Of a stretch of DNA of 64,000 bases, positions 45,917 through 63,221 are shown in pieces. The notes under the pieces are model-generated. The model saw nothing but the letters and a program-made list of their open reading frames with translations, ran no database searches and was not told the DNA's origin. Where the stretch lies: positions 1,406 through 65,405 of the forward strand of contig JADHWE010000006.1 of assembly GCA_016783675.1 (NCBI GenBank), written 5' to 3'. The position numbers and the translations under genes are program-made. This DNA comes from Kiritimatiellia bacterium. GTDB taxonomy: Bacteria > Verrucomicrobiota > Kiritimatiellia > UBA8416 > JABMPJ01. The stretch's first letter is position 1; each line of letters begins with the position of its first letter.

Positions 45917-45965
45917 TCCATCATTCAATCGTCACTATGCATCACTTTGGAATGCCACTGCATCA
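45917..45965. promoter_or_regulatory. three phased TGCATCA-type direct repeats upstream of GH38
   Basis: TCCATCA at 45917, TGCATCA at 45938, TGCATCA at 45959. Start-to-start spacing is 21 nt for both steps. Confidence 0.55.
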
Positions 45966-45996
45966 TTATGGCCATTGCGATTGCCGTGTACCCCAC

Positions 45997-46962: not shown

Positions 46963-47010
46963 AGTGCCAAAGAGAATGCCGCATCCTCGCCAAAGCCACA
47001 ACGGCTTTGT

Positions 47011-47038
47011 TGCATCATATTCCCGTGCTTATGCATCA
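47011..47038. promoter_or_regulatory. paired TGCATCA direct repeats upstream of the HAD gene
   Basis: TGCATCA at 47011 and 47032, spacing 21 nt. Confidence 0.55.
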
Positions 47039-47110
47039 CATCGGACAGTGAGAGGGCATCCCTTCCCCACTGTCGGATATCGACCCACCTCTCGAACTCT
47101 AACGAGGCCA

Positions 47111-48520: not shown

Positions 48521-48531
48521 AGCAATCGAGT

Positions 48532-49746
48532 TCAGTCCAGCGGCTTAATCTTCAGGTTGCGAAACCAGATCGGCGCCCCACCGTGTTTGCCCTGGAAGCC
48601 AATGCGGCCTTTGGTGGGATGGTTGTTGAGCGGCTTGCTCAGCCATCCTGGCTTTTTCGTGCCATCCGGGTTATGCGTGGCGGAATCCCACTTGAGCATA
48701 TCCATGGAGTTCACGTGTTCGCCGTTGAGGATCACATCGATACGTGGGCCTTTGCAGATGATCGTGTAGCGATTCCACTCCCCTGCGGGTTTCACCGCAC
48801 TCTCACAGGGCGCCAAGCGCCCGAAGATGGCCCCGCACTTCCAGGTGGGATTCGCCTTGGCCCATTTTTCCGACTCGTCATCGGTAATCTGAATCTCTAC
48901 CGAGTTCCGAACCCAACCGGCCGGATCCGTGAGGTATACAAACACGCCGCTGTTGGCGGCCGGGCCGTTCTTGAATTCGAGATCGAGAACGAAGTTCTCG
49001 TATTCCTTTTTGGTCATGATCAGCTTGTCCTGGCTGGCAGTGATCTCGCCATTCGACACGGTCCAGACCCCTGCAGGGAACTCGGCATTCGAGAGATCAG
49101 GAGCGAACAGCGGCTCCCAGCCGGCAGCACCGACCGCAGCGGGATTCTTCGCCACCGCCTTCAGCTCTTCGGCCGTGAGCAGTTCCAGCTCGGAGAGCTG
49201 GGTGGTGTGCGTGCCCCAGTTCTTAGTGACGTCCAGTTTGTACCAGGCGTAGTCGCCCGGCTTACTGACCTCGAACTGGCGCCTCTGGAAGCGCTGCGAG
49301 AACTCCTCGTCCTTGCGCTGATCCAACACATCCCACTGCTTGCCATCCGTGGATCCCCTCAGGGTCCAATTGCAGGGATCGCGCAGCGGATGATCGTTGG
49401 CCGTGGTCAGGGCATAGGCCACAACATGCTTCGTCGTGCCCTTCGCGGACTGGTGCTGAATCCACATCGTAGGAGCGAGAGTGCAGTACTTGGTTTTCGC
49501 AGTGCCGTCAAACGCCATTTCCGGTCCCTCGCCGCACGCGGCACCTTCGGTGCACGCACTTACCGTTGCTCCCCCGGACAGCTTCGCGGCCGCCCCGTTC
49601 TCCGGCTCCGGCCAGAGGCCGCTTCCCTCCCGGCGGTAGTTCTCATAGACCTCATCCAGCGCGTCTATGCCCACAAACTCCGCACCCGCACAGGCGAGGC
49701 AAGAGATCGACAACACTATCCCGCAAACCACTATCACGTTTCGCAT
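48532..49746 (-). CDS. secreted F5/8 type C (discoidin) + DUF1080 (3-keto-disaccharide hydrolase-like) protein
   Basis: Signal peptide. Discoidin region (AFDGTAKTKYCT...WTLRGSTDGKQWDVL). DUF1080 region (GWEPLF...GVWTVSNGEITAS...SGVFVY...EIQITDD...GRIGFQGKHGGAPIWFRNLKIKPL). Confidence 0.7.
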   Translation of the reverse strand: MRNVIVVCGIVLSISCLACAGAEFVGIDALDEVYENYRREGSGLWPEPENGAAAKLSGGATVSACTEGAACGEGPEMAFDGTAKTKYCTLAPTMWIQHQSAKGTTKHVVAYALTTANDHPLRDPCNWTLRGSTDGKQWDVLDQRKDEEFSQRFQRRQFEVSKPGDYAWYKLDVTKNWGTHTTQLSELELLTAEELKAVAKNPAAVGAAGWEPLFAPDLSNAEFPAGVWTVSNGEITASQDKLIMTKKEYENFVLDLEFKNGPAANSGVFVYLTDPAGWVRNSVEIQITDDESEKWAKANPTWKCGAIFGRLAPCESAVKPAGEWNRYTIICKGPRIDVILNGEHVNSMDMLKWDSATHNPDGTKKPGWLSKPLNNHPTKGRIGFQGKHGGAPIWFRNLKIKPLD

Positions 49747-49771
49747 GTTCAGCGTCCTTTGGATCCTGAAT

Positions 49772-49812
49772 CCCTCACAATTTTCAATCTTAAACTTTCA
49801 ATTTTCAATTCT
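49772..49812. repeat. AT-rich intergenic spacer with three TTTCAAT copies
   Basis: TTTCAAT at 49782, 49796 and 49803, between the Gfo stop codon (49813) and the DUF1080 start codon (49746). Confidence 0.6.
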
Positions 49813-51153
49813 CTAGTACTTCCGATATTGCTTACGAACCAGGGCCGTGGCTTCCGGATCGTTGGGGCACTCCATACGTTTCGCGTCCCACTCAATACGC
49901 CGTCCCAGCCGGGCGGCCAGGTTGCCTATCAATACCATTTCGGTCAACGGTCCGGCATAGTCGAAGTTGGCTCCGGCGGGCGCCCCGCCCTTGCAGGCTT
50001 CGATCCATTCCTTGTAGTGACCGATCGAAGGTTTCTCGGTCTTCTCCGGTAGTCCGTTCTTACCAAACTCACGCATCTTCGCCTCCGGAATGATGCGGAT
50101 GGATTGGCAGTAGATGCCGTTGAACATGAGCGTGCCTTCAGAACCGTACCAGAAGGCGCCCCCGTCACCGCCCGGCAGATTCCGTCCCTCCTCGAGCTCG
50201 GGCGGGCGAGGCGGCTGCTTTTTGCCGTCGTGCCAGACAAGCTTGATCGGCCCGCGCTCGGCGGTGGCAGGGAATTGATAGGTGATGATCGACCACGCGG
50301 GGCAGCTCCACTCGCTTTTCGGGCCGGTGACGGCGTCCACGCTGGTCGGACGTCCCAGCTTGAGGACATCGAAGTGGCAGTCCATGGCATGACAGCCGAT
50401 GTCGCCCAGCGCGCCGCAGCCGTACTCCCACCATCCGCGCCATGCGAAGGGGAGATAGGCCCTGTTGTAGGCGCGCTCCTGGGCCACGCCCTGCCAGAGA
50501 TTCCAGTCCAGGTGCGTCGGCGCCGCCTGGGCCGGCTGCAGCGGCCGGTCGCCCTGGGGCCAGATAGGCCGGTTCGTGTAGATGTGCACCTCATGGACTT
50601 CACCAACAGCCCTCGCCGCGTACCACTCGCGCAGCCGCCGGATACCTGTTCCGGAATGTCCCTGGATCCCCATATGCGTAGCCACCTGGTGCTTGCGCGC
50701 CGCCTCCGTAAGCGACCGGGCTTCTTCAATGGTGTGCGCCAACGGCTTCTGCACAAAGACATGCTTGCCCATCTTGATCGCCATCATCGCCGCCGGAAAA
50801 TGCATGTGGTCCGGGGTGCTGATAGTGACGGCATCGATCTGGTCATCCATTTCCATCAGCATGCGCCGGAAATCCTTGTATCGCTTGGCCTGGGGATACT
50901 TTTCGAAGGTGCCCTTGGCCCGTTCGAAATCGACATCGCAGAGCGCCACGATATTCTCGCCGGCGACCGCTGCCACATCACTATTCCCCTTGCCCCCAAC
51001 CCCGATGCAAGCGATGTTGAGTTTGCGCCCCTCGATGATGGTACCCGTCCGGGAGGGAATATCACCCCAGGCCCACTCGATGTTCGGCAGGGCGGCATAG
51101 GCCACTGCCCCGAGTCCGGCGGTCCCTATAAATCTGCGTCTATCCATGGACAT
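49813..51153 (-). CDS. TAT-exported Gfo/Idh/MocA-family oxidoreductase
   Basis: Twin-arginine signal MSMDRRRFIGTAGLGA. Rossmann motif IACIGVGGKGNSD and the EKPL-type motif VFVQKPLAHT. Confidence 0.85.
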   Translation of the reverse strand: MSMDRRRFIGTAGLGAVAYAALPNIEWAWGDIPSRTGTIIEGRKLNIACIGVGGKGNSDVAAVAGENIVALCDVDFERAKGTFEKYPQAKRYKDFRRMLMEMDDQIDAVTISTPDHMHFPAAMMAIKMGKHVFVQKPLAHTIEEARSLTEAARKHQVATHMGIQGHSGTGIRRLREWYAARAVGEVHEVHIYTNRPIWPQGDRPLQPAQAAPTHLDWNLWQGVAQERAYNRAYLPFAWRGWWEYGCGALGDIGCHAMDCHFDVLKLGRPTSVDAVTGPKSEWSCPAWSIITYQFPATAERGPIKLVWHDGKKQPPRPPELEEGRNLPGGDGGAFWYGSEGTLMFNGIYCQSIRIIPEAKMREFGKNGLPEKTEKPSIGHYKEWIEACKGGAPAGANFDYAGPLTEMVLIGNLAARLGRRIEWDAKRMECPNDPEATALVRKQYRKY

Positions 51154-51284
51154 GCTTTGCGCTCCCCTTCTTTCTGATTCTCATCTCGTCGTCCAAAGCC
51201 GGTTCAGAACCGCGAACCCCGTTGAGCCTGCACAGCGAGGACTCGCCGCCTCACTCCAGACAATCAGTATCCCTCATGATGGAC

Positions 51285-51328
51285 TTCATCACAATGGCAA
51301 GCATGCATCATTTTATCAACCTGATGAA
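51285..51328. promoter_or_regulatory. TGCATCA-type sites upstream of the Gfo/DUF1080/sulfatase operon
   Basis: TTCATCA at 51285, TGCATCA at 51304 (spacing 19 nt), and an inverted TGATGAA at 51322. Confidence 0.4.
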
Positions 51329-51386
51329 TCCTTTTGGGCTCGGAACCGCCACCCCTGTCCTGAACTACTCACGAACAAGCAACGCC

Positions 51387-51551
51387 TTATGGGGATAACG
51401 GCACCGGTTCGGGGGTCAGCCACACGGTGACCTCGAGCTCCGCCACCTTGGTGACCATGTGGTCTTGGATCTTTTTCTCACACGCATCAATGAGGCCGAG
51501 CACACCGCTAGCGTAAACGCTGTCGCTGTAATCATTGTGGCGTGCAGTCAT
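51387..51551 (-). CDS. possible 54-aa small protein downstream of the UroD-like gene
   Basis: ATG 51551 lies 7 nt after the UroD-like stop and is preceded by an AGGAA purine tract. It translates to MTARHNDYSDSVYASGVLGLIDACEKKIQDHMVTKVAELEVTVWLTPEPVPLSP. It is below the ORF-track cutoff and I recognise no homology. Confidence 0.25.
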   Translation of the reverse strand: MTARHNDYSDSVYASGVLGLIDACEKKIQDHMVTKVAELEVTVWLTPEPVPLSP

Positions 51552-51558
51552 ATCATTC

Positions 51559-52455
51559 CTAAGCGACGTGCGCCTCTGCGATGCATCTATACTCGTCCCA
51601 CATCGTCTTGTAGCTCTCCGGCGGCATGCCGTTGAAGATGCAATTCGAGGTCGAGAAGATGTAGGGCTTCCCTACCCCGCCATGTGTCATGCAGTAGCGC
51701 ACTGACTCCCGGATCTCATTCTGGTTGGTGTCCTGCAGCATGTTGCAGGCGACATTACCCATCAGAATCCAGTCCGGGTACTGCGCTCTGACCTCCTTGA
51801 TATCCATGTGGCCCTGCGGGTCGACTGACTGGTAGCCATCGACGCCGGTGGCATGGATCTGATCGAGGATCTGGGTGATGCAGCCATCCGAATGCAGGAT
51901 GGCCTTCTTGCCCAGGTCATGGATATTCGCAACGACCTCGGTCAGATACGGCGCGACAAACTCGGCATACTGATCAGGCGAAACAAACGGCGCATCGTTA
52001 TAGCCGAAATCATACGTCAGGACAAAGAAGTCGGCCCCGACATCGACGGCCTGTTTGAAGTACACCTTCGCGTTCTCGACCTTCTGCCGCGCCTCCGCGT
52101 GCAGCTCGTCCGGCTGTTCGAACAGGCGGATCACGAAGTCCATTACATCACCGCCGGTCGGCATGTAGAAGACGCCACCACCATCGTAAGCGGGAATAAG
52201 CGCCTTGTGGCCGAGTGCCTTTTTGACTCCGGCAATCTCCTCGACACCGTATCCGCCGCGGATCGCCGCCCAGTCATACTCGTCAACCAAGCGGTGATAG
52301 ACATCGATCTGTGCGGCCTGCCGGTCGGCTTCCGACAACGCCTCCAGGTCGACACCGAACATTTCCTTCTCGATCTGAAAAACCAGTTCCCAGTGCGGTG
52401 GCGTTTCCGGAACCCCACCGTTCAAAACCATCTCAAGCTTCTCTTTGCCGGTCAT
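51559..52455 (-). CDS. uroporphyrinogen-decarboxylase (URO-D/MtaA-like) family protein
   Basis: ILHSDGCITQILDQIHATGVDGYQSVDP and YIFSTSNCIF, parallel to the URO-D-like gene at 37528..38727. Start taken at Met 52455. Confidence 0.7.
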   Translation of the reverse strand: MTGKEKLEMVLNGGVPETPPHWELVFQIEKEMFGVDLEALSEADRQAAQIDVYHRLVDEYDWAAIRGGYGVEEIAGVKKALGHKALIPAYDGGGVFYMPTGGDVMDFVIRLFEQPDELHAEARQKVENAKVYFKQAVDVGADFFVLTYDFGYNDAPFVSPDQYAEFVAPYLTEVVANIHDLGKKAILHSDGCITQILDQIHATGVDGYQSVDPQGHMDIKEVRAQYPDWILMGNVACNMLQDTNQNEIRESVRYCMTHGGVGKPYIFSTSNCIFNGMPPESYKTMWDEYRCIAEAHVA

Positions 52456-52532
52456 CACGCTCTTTCCCCTATGAATTGCCATGCATCGCAAGAAGGATAG
52501 ACTTTTGGGTGCTGCTGCACCAACCGCCAACA

Positions 52533-52560
52533 TGCATCATTGCCAACGACGCCTGCATCA
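52533..52560. promoter_or_regulatory. paired TGCATCA direct repeats upstream of the UroD-like gene
   Basis: TGCATCA at 52533 and 52554, spacing 21 nt. An additional TGCATCG lies at 52482. Confidence 0.55.
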
Positions 52561-52649
52561 TTCTTGACAGGGCAAATGAGAGGCCACGAACCCCCATCTC
52601 CGCCGTTGTCGGCAAAGCTCCAAAGGACACGTGGGCGGCTTTGCCAGTA

Positions 52650-52693
52650 GCCCTGAAAGGGCGAAATATACAAGCCCAGGGCAACGCCCTGGG
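52650..52693. repeat. REP-like composite palindromic unit (copy B1, inverted orientation)
   Basis: GCCCT-GAA-AGGGC, a 12-nt spacer containing ATATAC, then CCCAGGGC-AAC-GCCCTGGG. Confidence 0.75.
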
Positions 52694-52715
52694 TAACGTA
52701 TGCGAGGGAGTATCA

Positions 52716-52776
52716 GCCCTGAAAGGGCGGGATATCTACGCACGTTTTCGAGTTCTATATCTCGCCCTTTCAGGGC
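52716..52776. repeat. REP-like partial units forming a long inverted repeat (copy B2)
   Basis: AGCCCTGAAAGGGCGGGATAT ... ATATCTCGCCCTTTCAGGGCT, with arms matching at about 20 of 21 positions. Confidence 0.7.
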
Positions 52777-52798
52777 TACATGCCTTTCCCCGGCAATT

Positions 52799-52842
52799 CC
52801 CAGGGCTTCGCCCTGGGCTGGTATATCCTGCCCCTTCGGGGC
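52799..52842. repeat. REP-like composite palindromic unit (copy B3)
   Basis: CCCAGGGC-TTC-GCCCTGGG, a 12-nt spacer containing GTATAT, then GCCCC-TTC-GGGGC. Confidence 0.75.
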
Positions 52843-52917
52843 GAAGAATCGGTCGCCCCACGGGTTCCTCGGTGCCGACAGCGGAGCCCTCACTTAGACT
52901 GATTGCGCCAAACAGGA

Positions 52918-54537
52918 TCAGACCCTAACCACGACCTCGTCCGCTCCCATCTTCTCGCCGGCATCGAAGGAGTCCGCGAGCGCGGGCACGTCTGAGAGTG
53001 AGATGTACTCGTGGGCCGCCGTGTTCGCCACATCTTTAGACATGACGAAGCCGAGTAACTCGACCCAGTCGGTCTGCTGCTTGTAGGTATGGTAGATCGT
53101 CTGATTCTCGTACTTGGCGTGGAGCTCGTGACCGGGCTCGTACGGGTTCTTGAACGGTTCCTGCGCGCACTGCGTGTAGGGGTCGAGTGTGACAAAGTGG
53201 CGCCCGGTCTCGTTGTTCCTGATCACGAAGAGCGGATACGACCCGTTGACCGGCCAGGCGTAAACCCGGCACTGCGGGTCCCCTGCCCCTTCGCGGCTCA
53301 GCACGGTATCCCCTTCGAGCGTCTTCGCGTAGAGAGGTACGAGCGGTACGATCCCCTCGTTGAAGTCGAGTACCTGGTGGTCCGCATGCTCGGCAAGGAT
53401 GCTGCCCTTCTTCGCGACATGCTCGAGTGAGCCGATCACGAAGTACATCCGGATAAGGTGCGGCGTGCGCGGGGTCTCCTCTGGACCGTAGTTGGTCGCC
53501 TGCACCATGTAGTCGCGCATGGCATCGTCAGCGTAGCCACAGGCGTAACTCGGCGTGTGGTCTTTGGCCCCGTCGGTCAGCTCCTTACCGAAGACGACAC
53601 CGAGAGCGTAATCGTATGGATTATCCGCATTGGGCGTGGCCGCAATCCAGCCGCCGGTGTCCTTGAAGGGAATGGAACGGTCGTTGGAAAAGAAACTAAC
53701 CGGATGCCAATAGCGATAGGAGCCGTCCGGGTTGGAGACGACCTGCTCCCGGAACAACGAGTGACGCACCCCACCCCAGGGGCCAAGGTTCATCTGGCAC
53801 TCGTCCTCGAAGTTGTAGACGAGGTAGCTCATCTCGATCACGCCGTCCCCAAGATCGCGGTAGTTGACGTAAATCAGTACCCCGCTGCGGTTCATGCTCG
53901 GGGTGGGAACTTGCCCCCAGTTCAGCATCGAGAAGGAGCGCTTCTCTGGATCAAAGTGCTCGCCCAGCAACGGGGTATAGAAGGTCTTCTTCTCCATGTC
54001 CCCCTTGATGTACATGCCGGACTGATGCACGAATGCATTCCCGTAGTGCTTGAATACAGTCCCCCTGTCCTCGGGGAGCTCATTCATGCGCGCAATGCTC
54101 GGATAGATCGTGGTGAACTGCCAGGCCTCATCCATCCACTGCGCGCCCTGATTCTGGGGCGGCACCGCCTCGCCGAAGAACGAGTAGATCGAATAGAGGT
54201 GCCCGCCTTTGCCAATTCCCAGGTCCCACTTACGTTCCTCCGGAGACTGGTGCTGCAGCCGCGCATGGAACACGGCACTCTCATCAAGCTCGCCCTTCTG
54301 CTCCTGGCGCGTCTCCTCGTCCACGAGGGACAGCCCACGCCACTCATCGCCACGCGCCCCCCATCGACTGTCACGAATCTTCCAGTCGAGCTCCTTCTTC
54401 AGCACCAGCTCGCTCGGCTTGTCGTAGAATGTCGGCGCCGGTGATTCAGGGAACAACCCCATGAATAGCGCCTGCGTTTCGTCCGGGGCCTTCTGCTCTT
54501 GAGTCTCTTCAGCGGTCATCGTTTTACTCACTTCCAA
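52918..54537 (-). CDS. conserved protein of unknown family (cytosolic paralogue of 58448..60088)
   Basis: 539-aa ORF with no signal peptide. It aligns along most of its length with the 58448..60088 product (for example LGIGKGG, WQFTTIY, NAFVHQSG, NLGPWGGVR, SNPDGSYR, NADNPY, GVVFGK, VYAWPVN, NNETGRHFVT, TDW.ELLGFVM). Confidence 0.6.
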   Translation of the reverse strand: MEVSKTMTAEETQEQKAPDETQALFMGLFPESPAPTFYDKPSELVLKKELDWKIRDSRWGARGDEWRGLSLVDEETRQEQKGELDESAVFHARLQHQSPEERKWDLGIGKGGHLYSIYSFFGEAVPPQNQGAQWMDEAWQFTTIYPSIARMNELPEDRGTVFKHYGNAFVHQSGMYIKGDMEKKTFYTPLLGEHFDPEKRSFSMLNWGQVPTPSMNRSGVLIYVNYRDLGDGVIEMSYLVYNFEDECQMNLGPWGGVRHSLFREQVVSNPDGSYRYWHPVSFFSNDRSIPFKDTGGWIAATPNADNPYDYALGVVFGKELTDGAKDHTPSYACGYADDAMRDYMVQATNYGPEETPRTPHLIRMYFVIGSLEHVAKKGSILAEHADHQVLDFNEGIVPLVPLYAKTLEGDTVLSREGAGDPQCRVYAWPVNGSYPLFVIRNNETGRHFVTLDPYTQCAQEPFKNPYEPGHELHAKYENQTIYHTYKQQTDWVELLGFVMSKDVANTAAHEYISLSDVPALADSFDAGEKMGADEVVVRV

Positions 54538-54600
54538 TGAATTTGGTATTCAGTAGTGGTCTCACTATCGCCCAAAGAGCCAACCGGAGCAATGGCCCAC

Positions 54601-54628
54601 ATGCATCATTATGGATCCACGAGGCATC
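54601..54628. promoter_or_regulatory. paired TGCATCA-type direct repeats upstream of 52918..54537
   Basis: TGCATCA at 54601 and GGCATCA at 54622, spacing 21 nt. Confidence 0.5.
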
Positions 54629-54820
54629 ATTTTCTGGAAGCTACGCCCTCAGACAGGAACGACCGAGTCCCCAGATGAACGACTCTTCCGCAGACTTCGC
54701 CTTTGGGCATTTCTTGACCCTATACCCCGATTGTGCCACCCTTTTTTAACTCCAAAGAGCCGTTGAGACGGTCTGGACACGCATGCGTCACGTCGGTTAA
54801 GAGAGGGTTGTCACTGACTT

Positions 54821-55108
54821 ATGACCGTTCAAACAGACAATTGGACCCCCGACACAATACCCTATATTTGCTGGGATCGGCAGTGGTCGGTTGCAGAGAT
54901 ACGCCGTCGACTGCGCTCTACGACGGGCGTGGAGCGACATCGACTGATGGCGTGGTTGATGCGGGAACTGAAGACCCCTGAAGTGTGGTTCTTCCTTAAG
55001 CCGGCGGAGATTCAGCAGGAATTCGAAGGTGTCAGTCGCTGGTTGGGCCCGGCGCGGCCGCTATGGGAATACCTGTTTGGGATGTGGCATGACCTGGGAA
55101 AACTCTAA
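54821..55108 (+). CDS. small putative antitoxin partner of the AbiEii/MenT-like toxin
   Basis: 95-aa ORF whose 3' end overlaps the toxin start by 20 nt. It lies in a region of lower GC, and I see no clear HTH. Confidence 0.45.
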   Translation: MTVQTDNWTPDTIPYICWDRQWSVAEIRRRLRSTTGVERHRLMAWLMRELKTPEVWFFLKPAEIQQEFEGVSRWLGPARPLWEYLFGMWHDLGKL

Positions 55109-55766
55109 AGCAATTACCCCGCTCAAACGGGATTTTCTGAAGGCCTTCTTTTCGAGGGAGAAACGCTTCTTCCTGACAGGGGGAAGCGCGTTGGGTCTGT
55201 TCTATCTCCAGCACAGATACTCGTATGACCTCGACCTCTTCTCGGTCGAGCACTTGGATTGGCTTGAACTCGATGGCGTCATGCGGCTCTGCGCCAGGGA
55301 CAGTAACGCTGATTTGGAATTGCTGCGAGACGCCCCAACTTTCAGGCGATACCACCTTACCACCGCGGATCATACCGAGATCATTGATATCGTCTTTGAC
55401 GTCAGCCCCCAAATCGATCAAGAGAAGAGGCTATTCGGGGACGTTCGAGTTGACACACTCCATGAAATCATGCTGAACAAGATTACGACGTTGATCAGCC
55501 GATGCGAGCTCAAGGATATCGTCGACCTGTACTTTCTGGAGCAGGAGGGCTTTCAGATTGAAGCCTGTTTTGAGGACGCTCAGCAGAAGGATGGCGGATT
55601 GGACCCAGGCATGATTTCACTGCTGCTGAACTCAGTTGCGATTGTCGAATTACCCGACTACTTGATCAAGCCTTTGACCCTCGAAGCACTGCGCACGTAT
55701 GTGGATGATTTGAAGCGCCGAATGGTCCTGATGGCCTATCCAGACGAAACCAGAGACACACCGTAG
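55089..55766 (+). CDS. nucleotidyltransferase AbiEii/AbiGii (DUF1814) toxin-family protein
   Basis: N-terminal FLKAFFSREKRFFLTGGSALGLFYLQHRYSYDLDLF matches the DUF1814 nucleotidyltransferase signature. Start taken at ATG 55089. Confidence 0.75.
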   Translation: MTWENSKAITPLKRDFLKAFFSREKRFFLTGGSALGLFYLQHRYSYDLDLFSVEHLDWLELDGVMRLCARDSNADLELLRDAPTFRRYHLTTADHTEIIDIVFDVSPQIDQEKRLFGDVRVDTLHEIMLNKITTLISRCELKDIVDLYFLEQEGFQIEACFEDAQQKDGGLDPGMISLLLNSVAIVELPDYLIKPLTLEALRTYVDDLKRRMVLMAYPDETRDTP

Positions 55767-56217
55767 ATAGATAACCGCCCGCGACCATAGTTGCACGTCA
55801 CCCGCGTATATTCATGCGGTCGCGTCCTGTAATCGTACTTTTTGCACTCCAAATTGAGAATACTCATCTCATATACATTGCTTCTGCAAAACGGGGTAAA
55901 TCCTCCCACGCGTTGCGCCAGAATAAAAGGTTACCGAAGCGATCTCTCTGAGTGAAGTGGTTGCGCCATAATTGATGTTACCCAAGCTTGCTGAAGATCT
56001 GTCGCTGCTTTGCATCGATAAGAGCCCTGAGCTTGTAGGGGTCCAGGTTGAGCTGCACCTCCGTGAGATACGCTTTCTGCGGTTCGACTAGGTGGTCGGA
56101 CGCGAGCAGCCTTTGGCAAGGTGTGGTCGTCCAGACCCTTGCCCTCGCGGCGAGCGAGTGTACCGAGGCGGAATATGCCACATGGATGGAATCCGCGTGC
56201 GCAACACCTAACGATCA

Positions 56218-58452
56218 CTAGCGGGCCTGACTGTCGCCCATAGTCAGCACCAACAGACCACCTGCCGTGATCTCCTCATGGCTGATTTCGAGACGATCAA
56301 GGGGACGACCGTTCAGTTCGGCCGACTGGATGTAGATGTTGTCGGGGCTGTTGTTGCGGGCAACAATGGTGAACGTCTTGCCGGTGTGATAGTCCGGGTC
56401 CAGCGTGATCTCGATGCGATCAAAGACGGGGCTGGTGATCTGGTAGATGCCGTCCCCGGGACAGATGGGGTGAATACCCATCGCCGCCAAAACATACCAG
56501 GCTGACATCTGGCCGACGTCTTCGTTTCCGCAGAGTCCAAAGGGACCCGGCCCATAGGCCTTGGCGCAGATCATGCGTGACCACTTTTGCGTCAGCCATG
56601 GCTTCCCAATCGCGTTGAAGAGAAAGACGGTGTTGTGCACCGGCTCATTCGGGTGGTTGTAGTAGTCGTTCCAGAGAAAATCCTCCGGCGTGTTCTCAAA
56701 GAGCGCAGTCAGCTCTTGGAGAAAGTAGTCTTCCCCCATCAGCTCAACCAGACCGGGAATATCGTGCGGCACAAACCAGCCCTGCTGATAGGGATTGGAC
56801 TCGCGGCAACCCTGGCCATGCACGGTCTTGCCCTGCCAGTCGAGCCAGTGGCCCTCCTCGTCCCGGGCGCGAAACCAGCGCACCTCGTCGTTCCAGATGT
56901 TGCGATAGGCCCTGCTGCGCTCGTCGTAGACGCGCGCCAGATCGGCCTTGCCGAGGCTTTCGGCAAAGCGCGCGAAACACCAGTCGGAGTACGCGTATTC
57001 CAGCGTTTCAGAAATACACCCCTTGCCAATGCCCTTGGCAGCGTATCCTTGCTCGCCGTTACCGAAGGTGTCAACTGACTGCCGACAGCAGGCGAACGCT
57101 TTGTCGGTGTCGTAGTTCCTGATTCCCTTGCGGTAGGCATCCACGATCACCACGACCCCGGGATTTCCGAGCATTGAGCCCGTATAGGCGTTTAGCATTT
57201 CCCATCGCGGCAAATACCCTCGCCCACTAAGTTCCGCGATCTGCAGCAGGGAGTTGATCTCGTCGTTCACCATGGCGGGATTGATGAGCGTCTGCAGTGG
57301 AAACTGCGAACGATAGACATCCCACCCACTGAAGACAGAGCGATAGGTGAAGTCCTCGGCCCGGTGCACATGCCCATCCGCGCCAACGTAGTCGCCGTTC
57401 ACATCGCTAACGCAACGGGGATCTATCATCGTGTGATAGAGCGCCGTGTAGAAGGTCTCCTTGTCGTCGTCCGTCCCGCCCTCGACGCGCACGACTGACA
57501 GCGCCCGCTCCCAGGATGCCTGGGCCTCGTCACGCACAGCATCGAAATCCCAGTGCGGAATGTCGTGCTCAAGGTTGGCTTTTGCCCCTTCGATGCTCAC
57601 GAATGAGATACCGCACTTGAGCAGCACGACGTCGTCCGCTGCCGTCTCGAACTCCGTGAAGAACCCGAGGTGCCGCCCCTGCGCCTCGCGCGCACCATAC
57701 GTGACGGGCGCCTCCGCCACGGCCTGCTGGTAGGCATCGGCCGCCACGTCGAAGTTCTTCCGTTCCCACGCGTCCGGGATCTCGGCACGCCAAACCCCGT
57801 ATCGTGTCAGCGGCTTGCTGAACTGACAGTAGAAGTGAACCGTGTAATCGACAGTGCCGCCACCGTTGCCGAATCCGCCGCCTTCGGGCGGACAGGTCAT
57901 CCAGCCACAGATGGTGTGCTCATCCACAACGCGTACGAACTGCTCGGTCGAGGTACCCCCCACCCTGCGCGCCAGATCGATCTGGATCCGGGATTGCTCA
58001 TGCTTGGGAAACGCGAAGCGAATCATCCCTGCACGCGGCGTCGCCGTCAGCTCAGCCCGCACCGCGTAGTCGTCGAGTGTGATCGCGTAGTAGCCGGCCT
58101 GCGCCACTTCAGTGGCATGCGATATCCGCGAGCGATATCCCCGGTCCGGATTCTCGCGCGTGCCCCTGGCCGTGTGCAGTGCACCCACCGTGGGGGTAAC
58201 CAGGAAGTTGCCCAGATCGCCATACCAGCCGGTACCGCTAAGGTGGGTGAAGCTGAAGCCCTCCAGCGTGTCATGCACATAGGAGTAGCCGGAACTGTTG
58301 TCGCCGCCAGTGATCGTGTCGGGGCTGAGCTGGACCAGCCCAAACGGTGTGGCCGCACCGGGGAAGGTCTTCCCGAAACCGTGCGCATCGGCGCTGCCTT
58401 CAGCGTAGGTGACCGCACCGATCAGCGGGTTGACATAGGAAACCGGTTTAAT
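56218..58452 (-). CDS. GH92 alpha-mannosidase (no signal peptide; start codon non-canonical or unresolved)
   Basis: Conserved GH92 N-terminus VNPLIG...GKTFPGAATPFGLVQLSPDT...SGYSY.HDTLEGFSFTHLSGTG. It extends 58 codons upstream of the track start (GTG 58278) up to an in-frame TAA at 58471-58473. The only plausible initiator is ATT 58452, preceded by GGAGGA. Confidence 0.75.
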   Translation of the reverse strand: MKPVSYVNPLIGAVTYAEGSADAHGFGKTFPGAATPFGLVQLSPDTITGGDNSSGYSYVHDTLEGFSFTHLSGTGWYGDLGNFLVTPTVGALHTARGTRENPDRGYRSRISHATEVAQAGYYAITLDDYAVRAELTATPRAGMIRFAFPKHEQSRIQIDLARRVGGTSTEQFVRVVDEHTICGWMTCPPEGGGFGNGGGTVDYTVHFYCQFSKPLTRYGVWRAEIPDAWERKNFDVAADAYQQAVAEAPVTYGAREAQGRHLGFFTEFETAADDVVLLKCGISFVSIEGAKANLEHDIPHWDFDAVRDEAQASWERALSVVRVEGGTDDDKETFYTALYHTMIDPRCVSDVNGDYVGADGHVHRAEDFTYRSVFSGWDVYRSQFPLQTLINPAMVNDEINSLLQIAELSGRGYLPRWEMLNAYTGSMLGNPGVVVIVDAYRKGIRNYDTDKAFACCRQSVDTFGNGEQGYAAKGIGKGCISETLEYAYSDWCFARFAESLGKADLARVYDERSRAYRNIWNDEVRWFRARDEEGHWLDWQGKTVHGQGCRESNPYQQGWFVPHDIPGLVELMGEDYFLQELTALFENTPEDFLWNDYYNHPNEPVHNTVFLFNAIGKPWLTQKWSRMICAKAYGPGPFGLCGNEDVGQMSAWYVLAAMGIHPICPGDGIYQITSPVFDRIEITLDPDYHTGKTFTIVARNNSPDNIYIQSAELNGRPLDRLEISHEEITAGGLLVLTMGDSQAR

Positions 58453-60088
58453 CGGTGTTCCTCCGCACCATTATGTCTTGAGCACCAATCGTGTCCCCCG
58501 GGTCGAAAGCCTGTTCCAGGGCCGGGATGGCTGACAAGGAGTCGTACGCATACGTTTTCCTGTCCGCCCTATCTTCAGGCATCACGAAGCCTAACAACTC
58601 GATCCAATCGGTCTTTTTGAGATAGGGCCGATAGATAGTGCGGTCCTGGTACTTCGCGTAGCTCGCGTGCCCGGGCTTGAACGGATTCTTGAACGGCTCG
58701 CTCGCACACTGTGCGTACGGGTCTGTGGTCACGAAATGGCGTCCGGTCTCATTGTTCTTCATCAGAAAAAGCGGAACGGATTGGTTCACCGGCCAGGCGT
58801 ATACCTTGCAGACGGGCTGCCCGGCGGCTTCGCGGCTCAGCACTGCATCGGCCCCGACCCGCTTTGCATAAAGAGGAACCAGCGGCGTGTTGGCCTCCGA
58901 GAGATCGAGCGGCTCGTAGTCGGCATGATCCGCAAGCCGGTTGCACTTCTCGGCCACCTTGTCGAGCGTATCGATCACGAAATACATGCGCAGCATGTGC
59001 GGCGTTCCGGGCTTATCCTTGATGTTGATAACGGTGGCCTGGACGGTATAGTCGCGCGTCCCGTGCCGGCTATCGCCGCAGTCGTAACGCGGCTTGCCGT
59101 AGTGCTCGCCCTTCCGGTCCAGCTGCTTGCCGAATACCACCCCGATCGCATGGCTATAGGGGTTGTCCGCATTGGCGGTCACCGCGGCCCAGCCGCCGGT
59201 GTCCTCGAAGTTGACCCTGCACCCATCGAGGCGGTCAAAACCATATGACCAAGGCGTGAAGAAACGGTACGAACCGTCGGGGTTGGAGATGACGTGCTCG
59301 GGAAACACGGAGGTACGCACCCCACCCCACGGCCCCAGATTGGTCATCGGTTCGTCCTCGAAGTTGTAGATGACGTAGGTCACCTCGATGACGCCCGCAC
59401 CGAGATCGCGGTACTTGGTGTAGACTAGTATCCCACTGCGGTTGATGCTCGGGGACGGAATCTGGCCCCACGACAGCACTGAGTAGGAGCGCTCTTTCGC
59501 ATCGAAATGCTCGGCCAGGATCGGAGAGTAGAACGGCTTGCTGTCCTTCTCTTTCGTGTAGACGCCCGACTGGTGGACGAACGCATTGGCGAACTTCATC
59601 CGTGTGGCATCACCGGGTATGTCGGGCAGGTCGCGCCCCAGCAGATGTCCGTAGATGGTCGTAAACTGCCAGACTTCATCATTCCACTGGCTATCCGGCT
59701 GCGATGGCGCCATCGCCTCGCCAAACGAGGAGTACATCGAGTAGATCTGTCCGCCCTTGCCGATGCCGAGTTCCCAGCTCCGCTCGGTCGTCGAACGGTG
59801 CTGGAGCGTGGCGTGGAAGACCGAATTCTCGTCCAGCTCCGGATGCCACTTCTTATCCCGCTCCCACCAGGCCAGACTCTTGAGCAAGACCGTCTCGCTC
59901 TGTTTCTCAAAGTTCGTCGGTGCCGCCGATTTCGGAAAGAGCTGCAAGAGCTGCGCGTCGGCCGGATCGGCCGTTTGCGGTGCTGCCGCGACCGGCAGAG
60001 CCATGCCGGCAATCAGCAGTCCCAACAGGACAATCCAGCTAGACCCACGCCGCAAAGCAAAACCCATAACACGATCTCTTAATGTCAT
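58448..60088 (-). CDS. conserved protein of unknown family (secreted paralogue of 52918..54537)
   Basis: N-terminal signal peptide (WIVLLGLLIAGMALPVAAAPQ); the rest is co-linear with the 52918..54537 product. The start is either Met 60088 or Met 60067. Confidence 0.6.
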   Translation of the reverse strand: MTLRDRVMGFALRRGSSWIVLLGLLIAGMALPVAAAPQTADPADAQLLQLFPKSAAPTNFEKQSETVLLKSLAWWERDKKWHPELDENSVFHATLQHRSTTERSWELGIGKGGQIYSMYSSFGEAMAPSQPDSQWNDEVWQFTTIYGHLLGRDLPDIPGDATRMKFANAFVHQSGVYTKEKDSKPFYSPILAEHFDAKERSYSVLSWGQIPSPSINRSGILVYTKYRDLGAGVIEVTYVIYNFEDEPMTNLGPWGGVRTSVFPEHVISNPDGSYRFFTPWSYGFDRLDGCRVNFEDTGGWAAVTANADNPYSHAIGVVFGKQLDRKGEHYGKPRYDCGDSRHGTRDYTVQATVINIKDKPGTPHMLRMYFVIDTLDKVAEKCNRLADHADYEPLDLSEANTPLVPLYAKRVGADAVLSREAAGQPVCKVYAWPVNQSVPLFLMKNNETGRHFVTTDPYAQCASEPFKNPFKPGHASYAKYQDRTIYRPYLKKTDWIELLGFVMPEDRADRKTYAYDSLSAIPALEQAFDPGDTIGAQDIMVRRNTD

Positions 60089-60204
60089 TATCACCTCACA
60101 GTTCCTACACATCGTACAGAATGATCACAGATTACGCCAGAGGTGCCGATGCTCCTCCTGCACCGGCCGTGCGGCAAGCAAATGACGGATGTCTGATCAG
60201 GCGG

Positions 60205-62883
60205 TTATCGCAAGAACTCAATCTCAGCAATCTGAACCGAGTTGGCGGTCTTGACATCCCGGACGGCCGAGATGTTCAGTCGATAGAAGGGGTAGGCCTT
60301 GGTCTTCTTGCAGCTGAAACGGCGCTTCTCAAGGCGCTTGGACCACTGTTCACCTGTGCGCGTGTCCAGCGTGGTCCAGCTTTTACCGTCATTGGACCCC
60401 TGTAGCTGCCAGTCCCTGGGATCCCGCTCCTGACCATCATCCGCACTGGTAATGGCATAGCCGCTGATGGCTTCGGGCGCTTTGTGCCGGATCTGAATCC
60501 AGCTCGCCTCAGGAGAGAAGTCGAGCCACTTGGTCTTGACGTCGCCGTCGAAGGCCTGCGCGGACGTCTGCGACGGCGGATGTTCACCCCTGGCTCGCGT
60601 ATTATCTCGCACGGGGCTCGACCATCGCTTGGTCACAAACTGGTTCAGAACCGAAAGCTTCGCCTCCGGCACATCCAGAGCGCATATGGCATAGCGCAGG
60701 TTGCGCATGGCGGAGGCATAGCTGCGCTCCTCGACCGGGGTCTTGGCAATCCCCTTGGCCGACTTGATCTCCAGTTCCAGCGCGCGTGTGTCCTGGCCGC
60801 TCTTCCTTGCATTCCGCTTCGCCTTGACCGCGGTGTTGATCAGCGACACCAGGCCCGGCCGATAGGCGTAGCCGTCCTCAATCACGGCCACACCGGTGCC
60901 GTCCTTTCCGCCCGGCCCACCATAGGGAGCAACCCACTCGGAGTTGACCTGATAGTTGTTCTCGTCACGCAAATAGAAGACGCCATGCGTCATCCCCGGC
61001 GGGGCAATCGCCGTGGCCACGCCCTTGCCCAATGTAGCGGGAGCCTCGAGCCACTCCTCATACCCGGGATGGTCCCGCAGAAAGTCTGAACCGTTGGTGG
61101 TATAGACCAACCTGGCATCCACAATCTTCGCCTTGTCCTTGCCCGTCTCGAAACGCACTTCGATGCGATCGCCCTTGCTGCTTCGCTTGAGTACCTCCGG
61201 GACCTTGTCGTTGCCAGGAAGCCCCCGACCAGGAGTATCCGCATTCTTGTAAGGTAGCGGCGCGTCATAGGTTGCCAACCACGCCTTCAACTTGCTGAGC
61301 AGCTCGTCCCGCTTCTCGGGATGCTCGTCGGCTAGATTGTGGGCCTCACCAAGATCAGCCGGTGAGCCATCCTTGTTGTAAAGCCGGTACAACTGGATCT
61401 CGGGGCGCGTGTGGTCCATGCCAGCGCCATGGTAGAGCAGCAGCTTCCAGTCCCCCTTGCGGATGATACTGGAGGAGGGCAGCGGACTGGGATAGTGAAA
61501 GAAGATGCTCTCGCGCGGCCGGCCATCGGCAAAGCGCGCCTTGTCATCTTTCCCGAGAATCGCGGGCAGAACATTGCACCCGTCCAGATCGAGGTCAGCC
61601 CGCGGTTTGGCCCCGGCCATGGCCAGGTAGGTCGGGAACATATCAATCAGGTTGATCGGGGTGTCGCAGACGCTGCCCTCTTCAACGCCGGGTCCCTGGA
61701 CAATGAAGGGAATGCGCAATCCACCCTCGTACACCTCCAGCTTCCCACCCCGCAATGGGAGGTTGTCCGTGATGCGCTCACGTTCGCCCTTCCCGCGACC
61801 ATTCTTCACCGGCGACTGTGTCAGCCCACCGTTGTCAGAACTGAGCATGACGTAGGTATTGTCGATGAGTTTGTGCCCCGGATTGCGGGGATCGTCGGTC
61901 TCCTCAAGAAACGTGAGAAGCTTGCCAACCTGCCAGTCCAGGCTGTCGAGCATCGCGGCGTAATAGGGATTCGCCTGCCGCGATGGCATGCCTTCCGCAA
62001 TCAGACCCGGATCCGTCGGAAAAGGCACGCCCATCTTCTTGCAGTAGTGCTCAAGGCGTTTGCGATCGCGGGTAGAGAAAGGTCCGTGCACGAAGGAGGG
62101 ACAGAAATTCAGGAAGAAAGGCTCATCCTGGTTCTTGGCCTTGTCCATCCAGCGCACCGCAAGGTCGACCACCCCGTCGAACGGACGGTCATCATCCTTG
62201 GGGTCGGTACGGAAAGGATCGTCGGGGGCGGATGTCGCAAAGCCCTCATGCCGGGGGTTTAGGGGTGACCAGATGCCGTGCCAGTATCCAGGCCTTCTGG
62301 CGCACTCATCCCACAGTTCGGGGTCATTGTAGGGCACGCCGGGCTTGCCCTCCCAGCTGAAGTCAAAGCCGTACGCCACCGGTCCGGGATAGCCGTTGCT
62401 GCGGCCGCCGCAGTGCCATTTCTGGATATGCGCACTGACGTAGCCGGCCTCCTTCAGCAAGCGCGGGATCGTCGGAGTGTCAAGCGGGACCCGTGACGGG
62501 TAGAAGGGCTCACCATAGGCATGCACCGCGTGATAGGGCCGCGCCAGCCGCCCGCCCATGACATGCAGGACCCCATTATGTACACCGTACTGACCGGAGA
62601 TATAGGCTGCACGCGATGGCGCGCAGGTCGGCGCGGGTGAATACGCCTGCATGAAGCGCCGCCCATTCCTGGCCAGCCGATCCATATGCGGCGTCTCGTA
62701 GATCGACTCCTCGCCACGCACCGCACGGAAGTAACACGCGGGGTCCATCCAGCCCAGATCATCGGTCAGGATGTGGACAATGTTGGGTTTGGGCACCGTG
62801 GTGGGTTCAGGCGTCGCATGAGCCGCCGAAGCCACAAGAAACAAGGCCGTAGTCGTGGCCGCGATAGTAGTTGGTCGTCTCAT
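60205..62883 (-). CDS. secreted Cys-type sulfatase with a C-terminal F5/8 type C (discoidin) domain
   Basis: Signal peptide MRRPTTIAATTTALFLVASAAHA. IVHILTDDLGW and the C-x-P-x-R motif in PAPTCAPSRAAYISG. The discoidin tail is FDGDVKTKWLDF...WQLQGSNDGKSWTTL. Start taken at Met 62883 with a GGAGAAAGAG purine tract upstream. The 75-codon 5' extension in the track is rejected. Confidence 0.85.
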   Translation of the reverse strand: MRRPTTIAATTTALFLVASAAHATPEPTTVPKPNIVHILTDDLGWMDPACYFRAVRGEESIYETPHMDRLARNGRRFMQAYSPAPTCAPSRAAYISGQYGVHNGVLHVMGGRLARPYHAVHAYGEPFYPSRVPLDTPTIPRLLKEAGYVSAHIQKWHCGGRSNGYPGPVAYGFDFSWEGKPGVPYNDPELWDECARRPGYWHGIWSPLNPRHEGFATSAPDDPFRTDPKDDDRPFDGVVDLAVRWMDKAKNQDEPFFLNFCPSFVHGPFSTRDRKRLEHYCKKMGVPFPTDPGLIAEGMPSRQANPYYAAMLDSLDWQVGKLLTFLEETDDPRNPGHKLIDNTYVMLSSDNGGLTQSPVKNGRGKGERERITDNLPLRGGKLEVYEGGLRIPFIVQGPGVEEGSVCDTPINLIDMFPTYLAMAGAKPRADLDLDGCNVLPAILGKDDKARFADGRPRESIFFHYPSPLPSSSIIRKGDWKLLLYHGAGMDHTRPEIQLYRLYNKDGSPADLGEAHNLADEHPEKRDELLSKLKAWLATYDAPLPYKNADTPGRGLPGNDKVPEVLKRSSKGDRIEVRFETGKDKAKIVDARLVYTTNGSDFLRDHPGYEEWLEAPATLGKGVATAIAPPGMTHGVFYLRDENNYQVNSEWVAPYGGPGGKDGTGVAVIEDGYAYRPGLVSLINTAVKAKRNARKSGQDTRALELEIKSAKGIAKTPVEERSYASAMRNLRYAICALDVPEAKLSVLNQFVTKRWSSPVRDNTRARGEHPPSQTSAQAFDGDVKTKWLDFSPEASWIQIRHKAPEAISGYAITSADDGQERDPRDWQLQGSNDGKSWTTLDTRTGEQWSKRLEKRRFSCKKTKAYPFYRLNISAVRDVKTANSVQIAEIEFLR

Positions 62884-63117
62884 GTCTATCTCTTTCTCCG
62901 TATGTACTCTCTCTGGGTAGGACGACAACGGCAATCCCGCCCAGCGGGAGTGGACGATTGAAGTTTGCGCCCATGTCCGAGACGGCCATCTCCGCTCGTC
63001 CCTCGATACGATGGCCATACAGAGGACACCCCCATCCTTCGTAATGCGCTCGGGGCGAGGTACGAGTGGAGATGGTCTCAGTATCACACTCCGCCCCAGA
63101 CTTCGCAATAGCCACTA

Positions 63118-63145
63118 TGCATCATCTCGATACCTGCATGCATCA
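63118..63145. promoter_or_regulatory. paired TGCATCA direct repeats in the divergent sulfatase / XylR-like intergenic region
   Basis: TGCATCA at 63118 and 63139, spacing 21 nt. The 12-mer CACTATGCATCA is identical to the one at 45934. Confidence 0.55.
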
Positions 63146-63221
63146 CTTTGAGGGGCGTTGGCTTCACATTACAGAAACTGAAGCACATGACCCCATTCTC
63201 TGTTGCCAACGCAGGTACTGA

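Follow-up and report, generated by a model that had tools for sequence, protein, structure and literature searches.

What are the two paralogous open reading frames that lie among mannosidase and sulfatase genes in this DNA, and why does only one of them carry an export signal? A sequence-only reading of the window (the whole stretch of 64,000 nucleotides analysed here) had given coordinates for the two genes, both of which are on the minus strand, and had proposed that they represent a new family of glycan-active enzymes. Its description of the pair as co-linear paralogues with over half of their residues in common is accurate: P0001 (52918..54537) and P0002 (58448..60112) align end to end with 285/527 identical residues (54%; E=0), and the blocks LGIGKGG, WQFTTIY, NAFVHQSG, NLGPWGGVR, SNPDGSYR, NADNPY, GVVFGK, VYAWPVN and NNETGRHFVT are all present in both proteins. 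The genes are as follows.

58448..60112, minus strand: P0002, the GH174 paralogue with a signal peptide (ORF translation, match to 8jd7, paralogy with P0001).
52918..54519, minus strand: P0001, the GH174 paralogue without a signal peptide (ORF, orthologue starts, PDB match, Foldseek).

Scans of both proteins against Pfam-A and NCBIfam gave no match at E<=1, in agreement with the earlier failure to find a family from motifs. Searches of the PDB with phmmer did find relatives, with P0002 matching 8jd7_A (E=2.3e-75) and 9k1g_A (E=3.5e-33), and P0001 matching the same two chains (E=4.9e-61 and E=2.3e-29, respectively); the 8jd7 sequence match covers query residues ~85-520. An AF2 model of P0001 (pLDDT 91, pTM 0.92) is mostly beta, with ~35 strands versus ~6 helices. 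Its top Foldseek match was 8jd7_A, 'endo-1,3-fucanase GH174A' (E=3e-43, TM 0.78/0.82), and 9k1g_A, 'Fun174Sb from GH174 family with fucotetraose', was also matched (E=2e-30, TM 0.66/0.79), while the matches after these two GH174 chains reached a TM of merely ~0.3. CAZy places a protein in GH174 when its catalytic module as a whole is significantly similar in sequence to that of a biochemically characterised member, and this similarity is found in both proteins. The P0001 model also has the expected fold, which is dominated by beta-sheet and is not a TIM barrel. A passage of PMC12534559 that cites Chen et al. 2024 (IJBM 280:135715) describes GH174 as a beta-sheet-rich endo-alpha-1,3-L-fucanase family with an unusual fold.

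The PDB title 'endo-1,3-fucanase' had at first led us to assume GH168, a family which we then rejected. FunA is a TIM barrel of 408 residues, and no GH168 structure was matched, crystal structures for that family having been reported (PMC12534559). Apart from one chance match, the PDB sequence search at E<=10 recovered only the two GH174 chains, with no homology to FunA, and the beta-rich P0001 model contains no TIM barrel. The GH168 endo-1,3-fucanases (FunA and its relatives) do share the reported reaction and substrate class of GH174, and they occur in a setting like that of the window pair, namely sulfatase-rich loci in Bacteroidota, Planctomycetota and Verrucomicrobiota. Their fold, however, is unrelated: the ~400 residues form a (beta/alpha)8 TIM barrel, in which a D/E pair is catalytic and a Lys serves as a 'polar knuckle' (PMC12534559). 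Membership of GH107 is likewise unsupported, with no GH107 chain among the PDB sequence matches at E<=10 or among the best 50 Foldseek matches (all of the 46 with E<=0.001 and a further four). The GH107 endo-fucanases use an Asp/His catalytic pair. Indeed, no other fucanase chain in the PDB gave a sequence match to the window pair at E<=10. Part of the P0001 model bears a weak likeness (Foldseek E ~1e-6 to 1e-4) to galactose-mutarotase-like beta-supersandwich domains, including those of aldose 1-epimerases, the YidC periplasmic domain, GH38 and GH2 domains, and PL4 and PL26 lyases. With a TM of just 0.22-0.34 and ~6-14% identity, these matches are no evidence of a common function or active site. 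GH187 is also beta-rich (PMC12534559) and may thus be distantly related to GH174; the direct strong matches of the window pair are to GH174.

The residue table of a review (PMC11943901) lists D119, E120 and E218 as critical for the activity of Fun174A. These correspond to D121, E122 and E220 of the 8jd7 chain, with a constant offset of +2, and their equivalents were located in both window proteins, with codons checked in each case.

54127..54132, minus strand: P0001 D136-E137 in the motif QWMDEAWQ, equivalent to Fun174A D119-E120 (8jd7 alignment).
53833..53835, minus strand: P0001 E235 in the motif GVIEMSY, equivalent to Fun174A E218 (8jd7 alignment).
59675..59680, minus strand: P0002 D145-E146 in the motif QWNDEVWQ, equivalent to Fun174A D119-E120 (paralogue alignment).
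59384..59386, minus strand: P0002 E243 in the motif GVIEVTY, equivalent to Fun174A E218 (paralogue alignment).

Across 97 homologues D136 and E235 (P0001 numbering) are invariant and E137 is conserved in >=90%, and the window pair retains all three critical residues together with 21 invariant family positions. Sequence, predicted fold and the three critical acidic residues show that both ORFs are members of CAZy family GH174, and endo-alpha-1,3-L-fucanase activity is predicted for P0001 and P0002 alike.

Because both proteins fall within a known family, they do not constitute a new one. The sequence-only reading had itself named placement in a characterised family, by a sensitive profile or structure search, as the outcome that would overturn its proposal, and the sequence and Foldseek searches gave precisely this. 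The idea that these two proteins are the first of an unknown glycan-active family owes its appeal to the silence of Pfam-A and NCBIfam and to public records in which the homologues are labelled 'hypothetical protein' throughout. It retains virtually no credibility, because two enzymes that have been crystallised and biochemically characterised match the pair strongly in sequence and structure, and because CAZy has listed their family, which was established with Fun174A of Wenyingzhuangia aestuarii, since 2023 (PMC11943901, PMC11685898, PMC12534559). The broader suggestion that the pair are glycan-active enzymes is supported as a prediction from sequence.

Fun174A (GH174A, W. aestuarii OF219, 8jd7) is homologous to the window pair over ~430 residues (E=1e-61 to 1e-75), superposes on the P0001 model at a TM of ~0.8, and shares with the pair the motifs GKGG, PWGGVR and HQSG as well as the D-E pair and distal Glu found to be critical by mutagenesis. 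It resembles the secreted P0002 in carrying an N-terminal signal, whereas P0001 has no signal and contains a 23-residue insert. Overall identity is modest: 25% between P0001 and Fun174A over the 8jd7 structural alignment, and, by BLAST, 33-34% for P0002 against the homologue of Fun174A in W. fucanilytica. That homologue has a type IX secretion C-terminal domain which is missing from the window proteins. The hosts also differ, Fun174A coming from a flavobacterium and the window pair from a Kiritimatiellia-like MAG of an anaerobe lineage. Fun174Sb (9k1g, crystallised with fucotetraose) is of the same family and fold, and is a single-domain protein of similar size (~500 residues), but it is more distant from the pair than 8jd7 and its C-terminal half gives a poor sequence alignment. 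Given the modest identity to characterised GH174 enzymes, the substrate and linkage specificity of the window pair may differ from theirs.

The claim that one copy is secreted and the other is not agrees with the two N-termini. P0002 has three possible starts, namely ATG 60112 (the longest ORF), ATG 60088 (the sequence-only reading) and ATG 60067 (the protein-collection version, P0003), the last of which opens directly onto a predicted signal peptide.

59981..60067, minus strand: Sec-type signal peptide of P0002, MGFALRRGSSWIVLLGLLIAGMALPVAAA, with AxA followed by PQ (read from the translation).

Cleavage would occur at MGFALRRGSSWIVLLGLLIAGMALPVAAA|PQ. The hydrophobicity maximum of the N-terminus is 2.94 for P0002 versus 0.88 for P0001, which has only a polar leader of 18-24 residues. 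The most likely start of P0001 is ATG 54519 rather than TTG 54537, the first possible one: an in-frame TGA at 54550-54552, 4 codons 5' of the TTG, makes upstream extension impossible, a Shine-Dalgarno-like purine tract (GGAAGTGAG) lies just 5' of ATG 54519, and the equivalent Met is the start in the orthologues P0037, P0042, P0044, P0040, P0034 and P0043. A hidden upstream signal peptide, either in-frame or frameshifted, was considered and is excluded by the same TGA and by the non-hydrophobic character of the small upstream ORFs. Taken by itself, the missing N-terminal signal would place P0001 in the cytoplasm.

Could P0001 instead be a decaying duplicate, the product of an N-terminal truncation, or a protein whose export is non-classical, and so not a working cytoplasmic enzyme at all? 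Immediately upstream lies a 1.7 kb islet carrying an AbiEii toxin gene, whose GC content is low (0.50-0.53 vs ~0.60) and which might have caused a truncation, and the first 18 residues form a polar stretch in which the AF2 model has low confidence. However, the same short polar N-terminus occurs in six orthologues (71-86% identical) on other metagenome contigs from different samples and with different gene neighbourhoods, and the signal-less clade that they form with P0001 has a tree support of 100. Most of the family otherwise carries a signal peptide (~85 of 97 members), and the tree contains a second, independent signal-less clade (P0029, P0031, P0033). P0001 also has no stop codons, keeps every family-invariant residue, and possesses its own operator-like site and Shine-Dalgarno-like tract. 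Decay, truncation and non-classical export are accordingly very improbable; judged from these sequences, the lack of a signal is not an artefact but a feature conserved across a small clade.

This clade is also marked by an insert.

54292..54360, minus strand: insert of ~23 residues, GARGDEWRGLSLVDEETRQEQKG, specific to P0001 and its clade (gapped in the alignment with P0002).

The insert is missing from P0002 and from nearly all other family members examined. The region comprises 24 residues in 8/8 clade members and 2-3 in others, the exception being the divergent P0117 with 17, and AF2 confidence over it is low in P0001 (pLDDT 57-67).

The genes surrounding the pair include GH92, GH38 and sulfatases, as the sequence-only reading had described, and the following features bear most directly on function.

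60205..63108, minus strand: 967-residue exported sulfatase that ends in an F5/8 type C (discoidin) domain, encoded immediately 5' of P0002 (PF00884, 6.6e-37; PF00754, 1.2e-11).
56218..58452, minus strand: GH92 alpha-mannosidase-family gene without a signal peptide (Pfam GH92N profile 1-236).
51559..52533, minus strand: URO-D/MtaA-like gene, downstream of P0001 (PF01208, 2.4e-25).
54602..54629, plus strand: phased TGCATCA-N14-GGCATCA site in the P0001 promoter region (phased-motif scan).
63118..63145, plus strand: another copy of the phased operator-like pair, 5' of the sulfatase gene at the head of an apparent sulfatase-P0002-GH92 transcription unit.

The GH92 start is placed at ATT 58452 because only this extended frame encodes a complete N-domain (profile 1-236), and the frame then overlaps the P0002 stop codon within GATTAA, which upholds the proposed coupling of the two genes. 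The TGCATCA repeat reported at the other copy is the phased site upstream of P0001. It is this phased pair, and not the plain heptamer, which is clearly non-random: TGCATCA-N14-(T/G)GCATCA occurs at 11 sites with <=2 mismatches against 0.70 expected, whereas TGCATCA itself is weakly enriched (18 vs 10.9 +/- 3.6, with 18 reached in 4/100 shuffles). Both P0001 and P0002 have this phased operator-like motif ahead of them, and both are part of an island rich in sulfatase and CAZyme genes. The island contains sulfatases, a GH95-like gene, GH92, GH38 and a sugar ABC importer, and we regard it as a putative sulfated-fucan island. Within the block, a 469-residue sulfatase, GH38, GH92 and the GH95-like protein are signal-less. 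The importer is ~15 kb from the GH174 genes, and its proposed link to them is one of proximity only.

The best overall explanation, to which we assign a probability of about 80%, is a GH174 pair acting on sulfated fucan, with P0002 exported and P0001 cytoplasmic. P0002 would be exported by Sec and, with the co-transcribed exported sulfatase, would convert a sulfated fucan or fucoidan-type polymer to oligosaccharides, which would then be imported, probably via the adjacent sugar ABC transporter. In the cytoplasm, P0001 would cut these oligosaccharides at internal alpha-1,3-fucosidic bonds, alongside the signal-less enzymes named above. We infer this two-compartment division of labour, which is plausible, from the gene content and N-termini. 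Several points count against the explanation. GH92 and GH38 are families of mannosidases rather than fucosidases, it is unusual for a polysaccharide hydrolase with endo action to be cytoplasmic, and Fun174A is reportedly inactive on brown-algal fucoidans (PMC10778895).

The mannosidase neighbours would fit better if the pair were GH174 relatives with another specificity, such as fucomannan, a glucuronomannan-type fucoidan or sulfated mannan. GH92 is coupled directly to P0002 and GH38 lies within the same motif-marked block, only ~1/3 of residues are common to characterised members, and in the tree both paralogues belong to a large branch apart from that of the W. fucanilytica homologue of Fun174A. 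Moreover, CAZy fucanase families can hold more than one linkage, GH168 including the 1,4-endo-fucanase FWf5 (PMC10778895). Yet the adjacency to GH92 is not conserved in the orthologue loci, which instead contain sulfatases, GH29, a GH95-like gene, AraC regulators and URO-D-like genes (the P0042 and P0010 loci were compared from gene tables); the critical residues and invariant positions are all kept; and the genome, that of a Kiritimatiellia-like MAG, is rich in GH29 fucosidases, with ~10 GH29 and ~28 sulfatase matches in 2.6 Mb. We therefore consider a different specificity unlikely and favour sulfated fucan as the substrate. The same orthologue loci bear out the expectation that association with carbohydrate genes, here sulfatases and CAZymes, would be conserved.

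No homologue was found in the genomes of 40 relatives, 5 from the same genus and 35 from the same order, and the GH174 genes are on this basis accessory. A contig scan seeded with the W. fucanilytica homologue recovered three distant loci, all in MAGs and none in a named isolate. Few marine polysaccharides are as recalcitrant as sulfated fucans and fucoidans and, to our knowledge, only a small number of endo-fucanases have been characterised. Neither Pfam nor NCBIfam detects GH174, and in consequence MAGs of Kiritimatiellia, Verrucomicrobiota, Planctomycetota and Armatimonadota contain whole clades annotated as 'hypothetical protein', whose members motif-based readers will keep mistaking for 'new families'. 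The assignment adds new members to a known family rather than opening a new enzyme class, and the gain is a correct annotation for ~280 homologues.

The conserved signal-less subclade could reveal where in the cell the final cleavage of the fucan backbone takes place. Its missing signal, its 23-residue insert and its recurrent URO-D/MtaA-like and AraC neighbours tentatively suggest, at somewhat less than even odds, a dedicated cytoplasmic GH174 branch which has been re-tooled from a secreted endo-fucanase into an intracellular hydrolase of sulfated fuco-oligosaccharides. If so, PVC-group bacteria would complete cleavage of the sulfated-fucan backbone, and part of its desulfation by signal-less sulfatases, intracellularly after ABC import, and the signal would have been lost at least twice in GH174 (in the P0001 clade and in the P0029/P0031/P0033 clade). 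For the URO-D/MtaA-like gene, NCBIfam matches fall far below the cut-off. Such neighbours, which recur beside GH174 genes in other loci as members of the same Pfam family, share just 23-27% mutual identity, such that their recurrence, as judged from sequence, is at the level of the family and not of the orthologue.

The two proteins are encoded on the same strand of the window as follows:

52918..54537, minus strand: P0001, the paralogue without a signal peptide, 539 codons counted from TTG
58448..60112, minus strand: P0002, the paralogue with a signal peptide, 554 codons

A full-length BLASTP alignment (E=0; 285/527 residues identical, 54%; 70% positives) upholds the sequence-only reading that these are co-linear paralogues with more than half of their residues in common, and the shared motifs which it quoted are all found in both. 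Its distinction between one copy with a signal peptide and one without is also borne out. P0002 begins with a typical Sec signal, MGFALRRGSSWIVLLGLLIAGMALPVAAA, followed by PQ (the collection entry for this protein, P0003, starts at ATG 60067), whereas the N-terminus of P0001 is without a hydrophobic stretch. Upstream extension of P0001 is impossible because of an in-frame TGA at 54550-54552, and its start is likely to be ATG 54519, preceded by a GGAAGTGAG tract.

Neither protein has any match in Pfam-A or NCBIfam at E<=1, which makes it understandable that no family could be assigned by eye. When every PDB chain was searched by sequence, two strong matches did come up, 8jd7_A (titled "endo-1,3-fucanase"; E=2.3e-75 for P0002 and 4.9e-61 for P0001) and 9k1g_A ("endo-1.3-fucanase"; 3.5e-33 and 2.3e-29, respectively). 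The fucanase family GH168 was suspected first and dropped, being a (beta/alpha)8 TIM barrel of roughly 400 residues (PMC7401878, PMC12534559) of which no structure was matched in this search. An AlphaFold2 model of P0001, made from a 97-sequence alignment (pLDDT 91.0, pTM 0.92), is nearly all beta. In Foldseek searches against the PDB it matched 8jd7_A, "endo-1,3-fucanase GH174A" (E=3.1e-43, TM 0.78/0.82), and 9k1g_A, the GH174 enzyme Fun174Sb with fucotetraose (E=2.1e-30, TM 0.66/0.79), the remaining matches (mutarotase-like supersandwich domains and similar) having TM values of about 0.3. Beta-sheets likewise make up most of the unusual fold seen in GH174 crystal structures (PMC12534559, citing Chen et al. 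2024). The earlier proposal of a new glycan-active family, to be given up if sensitive searches led to a characterised one, therefore falls: P0001 and P0002 are new, previously unannotated members of GH174.

For Fun174A, the founding GH174 endo-alpha-1,3-L-fucanase, the critical residues are given as D119, E120 and E218 (review table, PMC11943901). The 8jd7 chain numbering is that of Fun174A plus a constant 2, and the P0001 and P0002 codons were checked.

Critical residues of Fun174A and their equivalents
D119: 8jd7 D121, P0001 D136, P0002 D145, motif QWxDExWQ
E120: 8jd7 E122, P0001 E137, P0002 E146, motif QWxDExWQ
E218: 8jd7 E220, P0001 E235, P0002 E243, motif GVIE(V/M)

Across the 97 sequences D136 and E235 (P0001 numbering) are invariant, as are 19 other positions, and E137 is kept in at least 90% of them; on this conservation both paralogues look catalytically competent.

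A hydrophobic N-terminal signal is present in about 85 of the 97 family members. The six nearest relatives of P0001 (P0037, P0042, P0044, P0040, P0034 and P0043; 71-86% identical, from differing JGI, ENA and NCBI samples) also have none, and all seven share a short polar leader and a start at the equivalent position. The absence of a signal in P0001 is thus a conserved feature, not a mis-called start or damage by the adjacent AbiEii islet (54538-56217). In the tree these seven form one clade (support 100) with P0035, which retains its signal peptide and is 68% identical to P0001. A 24-residue segment is present in 8/8 clade members, where almost all remaining rows have 2-3 residues; as P0035 also carries it, the insert seems to be older than the signal loss. 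The novelty here is modest and testable: a conserved GH174 subclade that lacks the signal. A second clade without signal, unrelated to the first, comprises P0029, P0031 and P0033, one labelled Armatimonadota; these proteins have 496 residues and the N-terminus MQ(V/L)(H/N)ADEH (L017 8001-9491), with genes for heparinase II/III-like, esterase and large beta-propeller proteins as neighbours.

The setting among mannosidases and sulfatases is as originally described, with GH92, GH38 and sulfatases all found in the block.

Genes of the glycan block (39.8-63.1 kb of the window)
sulfatase with discoidin domain: exported
P0002: exported
GH92: no export signal
AbiEii toxin pair, plus strand: export signal not applicable
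P0001: no export signal
URO-D/MtaA-like protein: no export signal
Gfo/Idh/MocA oxidoreductase: twin-arginine signal
DUF1080 (3-keto-disaccharide hydrolase-like) protein: signal peptide
469-residue sulfatase: no export signal
HAD hydrolase
GH38: no export signal
GH95-like protein with discoidin domain: no export signal

Next come genes for an AraC regulator, a second URO-D-like protein and a sugar ABC importer. The GH92 frame (56218-58473) has no ATG, GTG or TTG able to include the conserved N-domain: coverage of Pfam GH92N profile positions 1-236 requires a start at ATT 58452, a codon overlapping the stop of P0002 (GATTAA), and from GTG 58278 coverage begins at position 46. This could reflect a start codon of non-canonical type, termination-reinitiation, or a +1 shift that joins GH92 to the exported GH174. 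The islet between GH92 and P0001, on the opposite strand, has a GC content of 0.50-0.53 against about 0.60 and encodes an AbiEii-family nucleotidyltransferase toxin (55029-55766, PF08843, 1e-11) with an overlapping upstream 95-codon ORF (54821-55108); AbiEii and PIN/PhdYeFM toxin-antitoxin pairs also adjoin GH174 genes in L004-L007, L015 and L016.

The TGCATCA repeat noted in the P0001 promoter region recurs as a phased TGCATCA-N14-TGCATCA, with 11 sites at <=2 mismatches against 0.70 expected by shuffling (0/100 shuffles reached 11). Sites at 45917, 45938, 47011, 51304, 52533, 54602, 63118 and 63139 lie within 45917-63166. Nearly all are intergenic and upstream of minus-strand genes of the block, preceding GH38, HAD, oxidoreductase, a URO-D-like gene, P0001 and the sulfatase-P0002 unit. 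With sites before both, the paralogues appear to belong to one regulon, and the repeat resembles an operator site bound by a regulator of the AraC or LacI type.

The association with carbohydrate genes is conserved for sulfatase and fucose-active genes, which recur in orthologue loci on other contigs with related gene sets; GH92 adjacency is not conserved.

Genes at loci of GH174 orthologues
P0008: sulfatase, sulfatase, GH174, URO-D-like, GH95-like
P0037: GH29 fucosidase, GH78, GH106, AraC, URO-D-like
P0042: URO-D-like, AraC, GH2, sulfatase
P0004: sulfatase, AraC-type regulator

At no fewer than four independent loci, GH174 genes have neighbours of the URO-D/MtaA-CmuA family (PF01208; window 51559-52533 and 37528-38751; L004 12755-13915; L015 9944-11044). 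The mutual identity of these neighbours is only 23-27%, and NCBIfam methyltransferase and HemE models matched them far under cut-off; a role in sugar O-demethylation within a sulfated-glycan locus is speculation. In P0004, P0006 and P0012 (90%, 85% and 72% identical to P0002; L006 10001-11977) the GH174 module is interrupted, after 'PLYAK' and before the 'C..YAWPV' strand, by a nested discoidin domain (F5/8 type C, DUF7402) some 120 residues long, so that a loop has received a binding module.

The analysis shows that both proteins belong to GH174 with their critical residues intact, that one is exported and the other is not, that motifs for co-regulation are present, and that the surroundings are rich in sulfatase and fucose-related genes. 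A mechanism can be proposed in addition. P0002 and the exported sulfatase would depolymerise sulfated fucan outside the cytoplasm, the resulting oligosaccharides would be imported, and in the cytoplasm, beside further enzymes that lack a signal, P0001 would cleave whatever internal alpha-1,3 bonds are left. The substrate is the chief uncertainty, sulfated fucan being putative: P0001 and P0002 share only about one third of their residues with the characterised GH174 enzymes and lie on a different major tree branch, Fun174A is reported to be inactive on brown-algal fucoidans (PMC10778895), and mannosidase-family genes adjoin the pair. In two signal-less sulfatases (47111-48520 and 23799-25352) the catalytic domain runs from the start (Pfam position 1 at residue 4-6); if they are cytoplasmic, desulfation and formylglycine maturation would occur inside the cell. 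Type II/IV secretion or pilus genes (13333-20032 and 4225-5334; two T2SSE ATPases, one secretin) could provide a route for enzyme export across the outer membrane.

The host MAG (2.6 Mb, 113 contigs, 71.6% complete) has an EF-G nearest to those of MAGs assigned to Lentisphaerae (88%) and to Kiritimatiellia (73-77%); among NCBI-named relatives, the one nearest to P0002 comes from a Kiritimatiellae MAG. A search of 40 related genomes, 5 from its genus and 35 from its order, found no GH174 homologue; the pair is accessory, patchily distributed and possibly horizontally acquired. In the MAG itself there are about 10 matches to GH29 and 29 to sulfatases (two of the latter being halves of one split gene), as well as a third, partial GH174-like frame outside the window at a contig end (C84:7-750, L011/L014; family profile E=1.9e-38), which shares 33% identity with P0001 in its C-terminal part. 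The same contig also carries two sulfatase genes.
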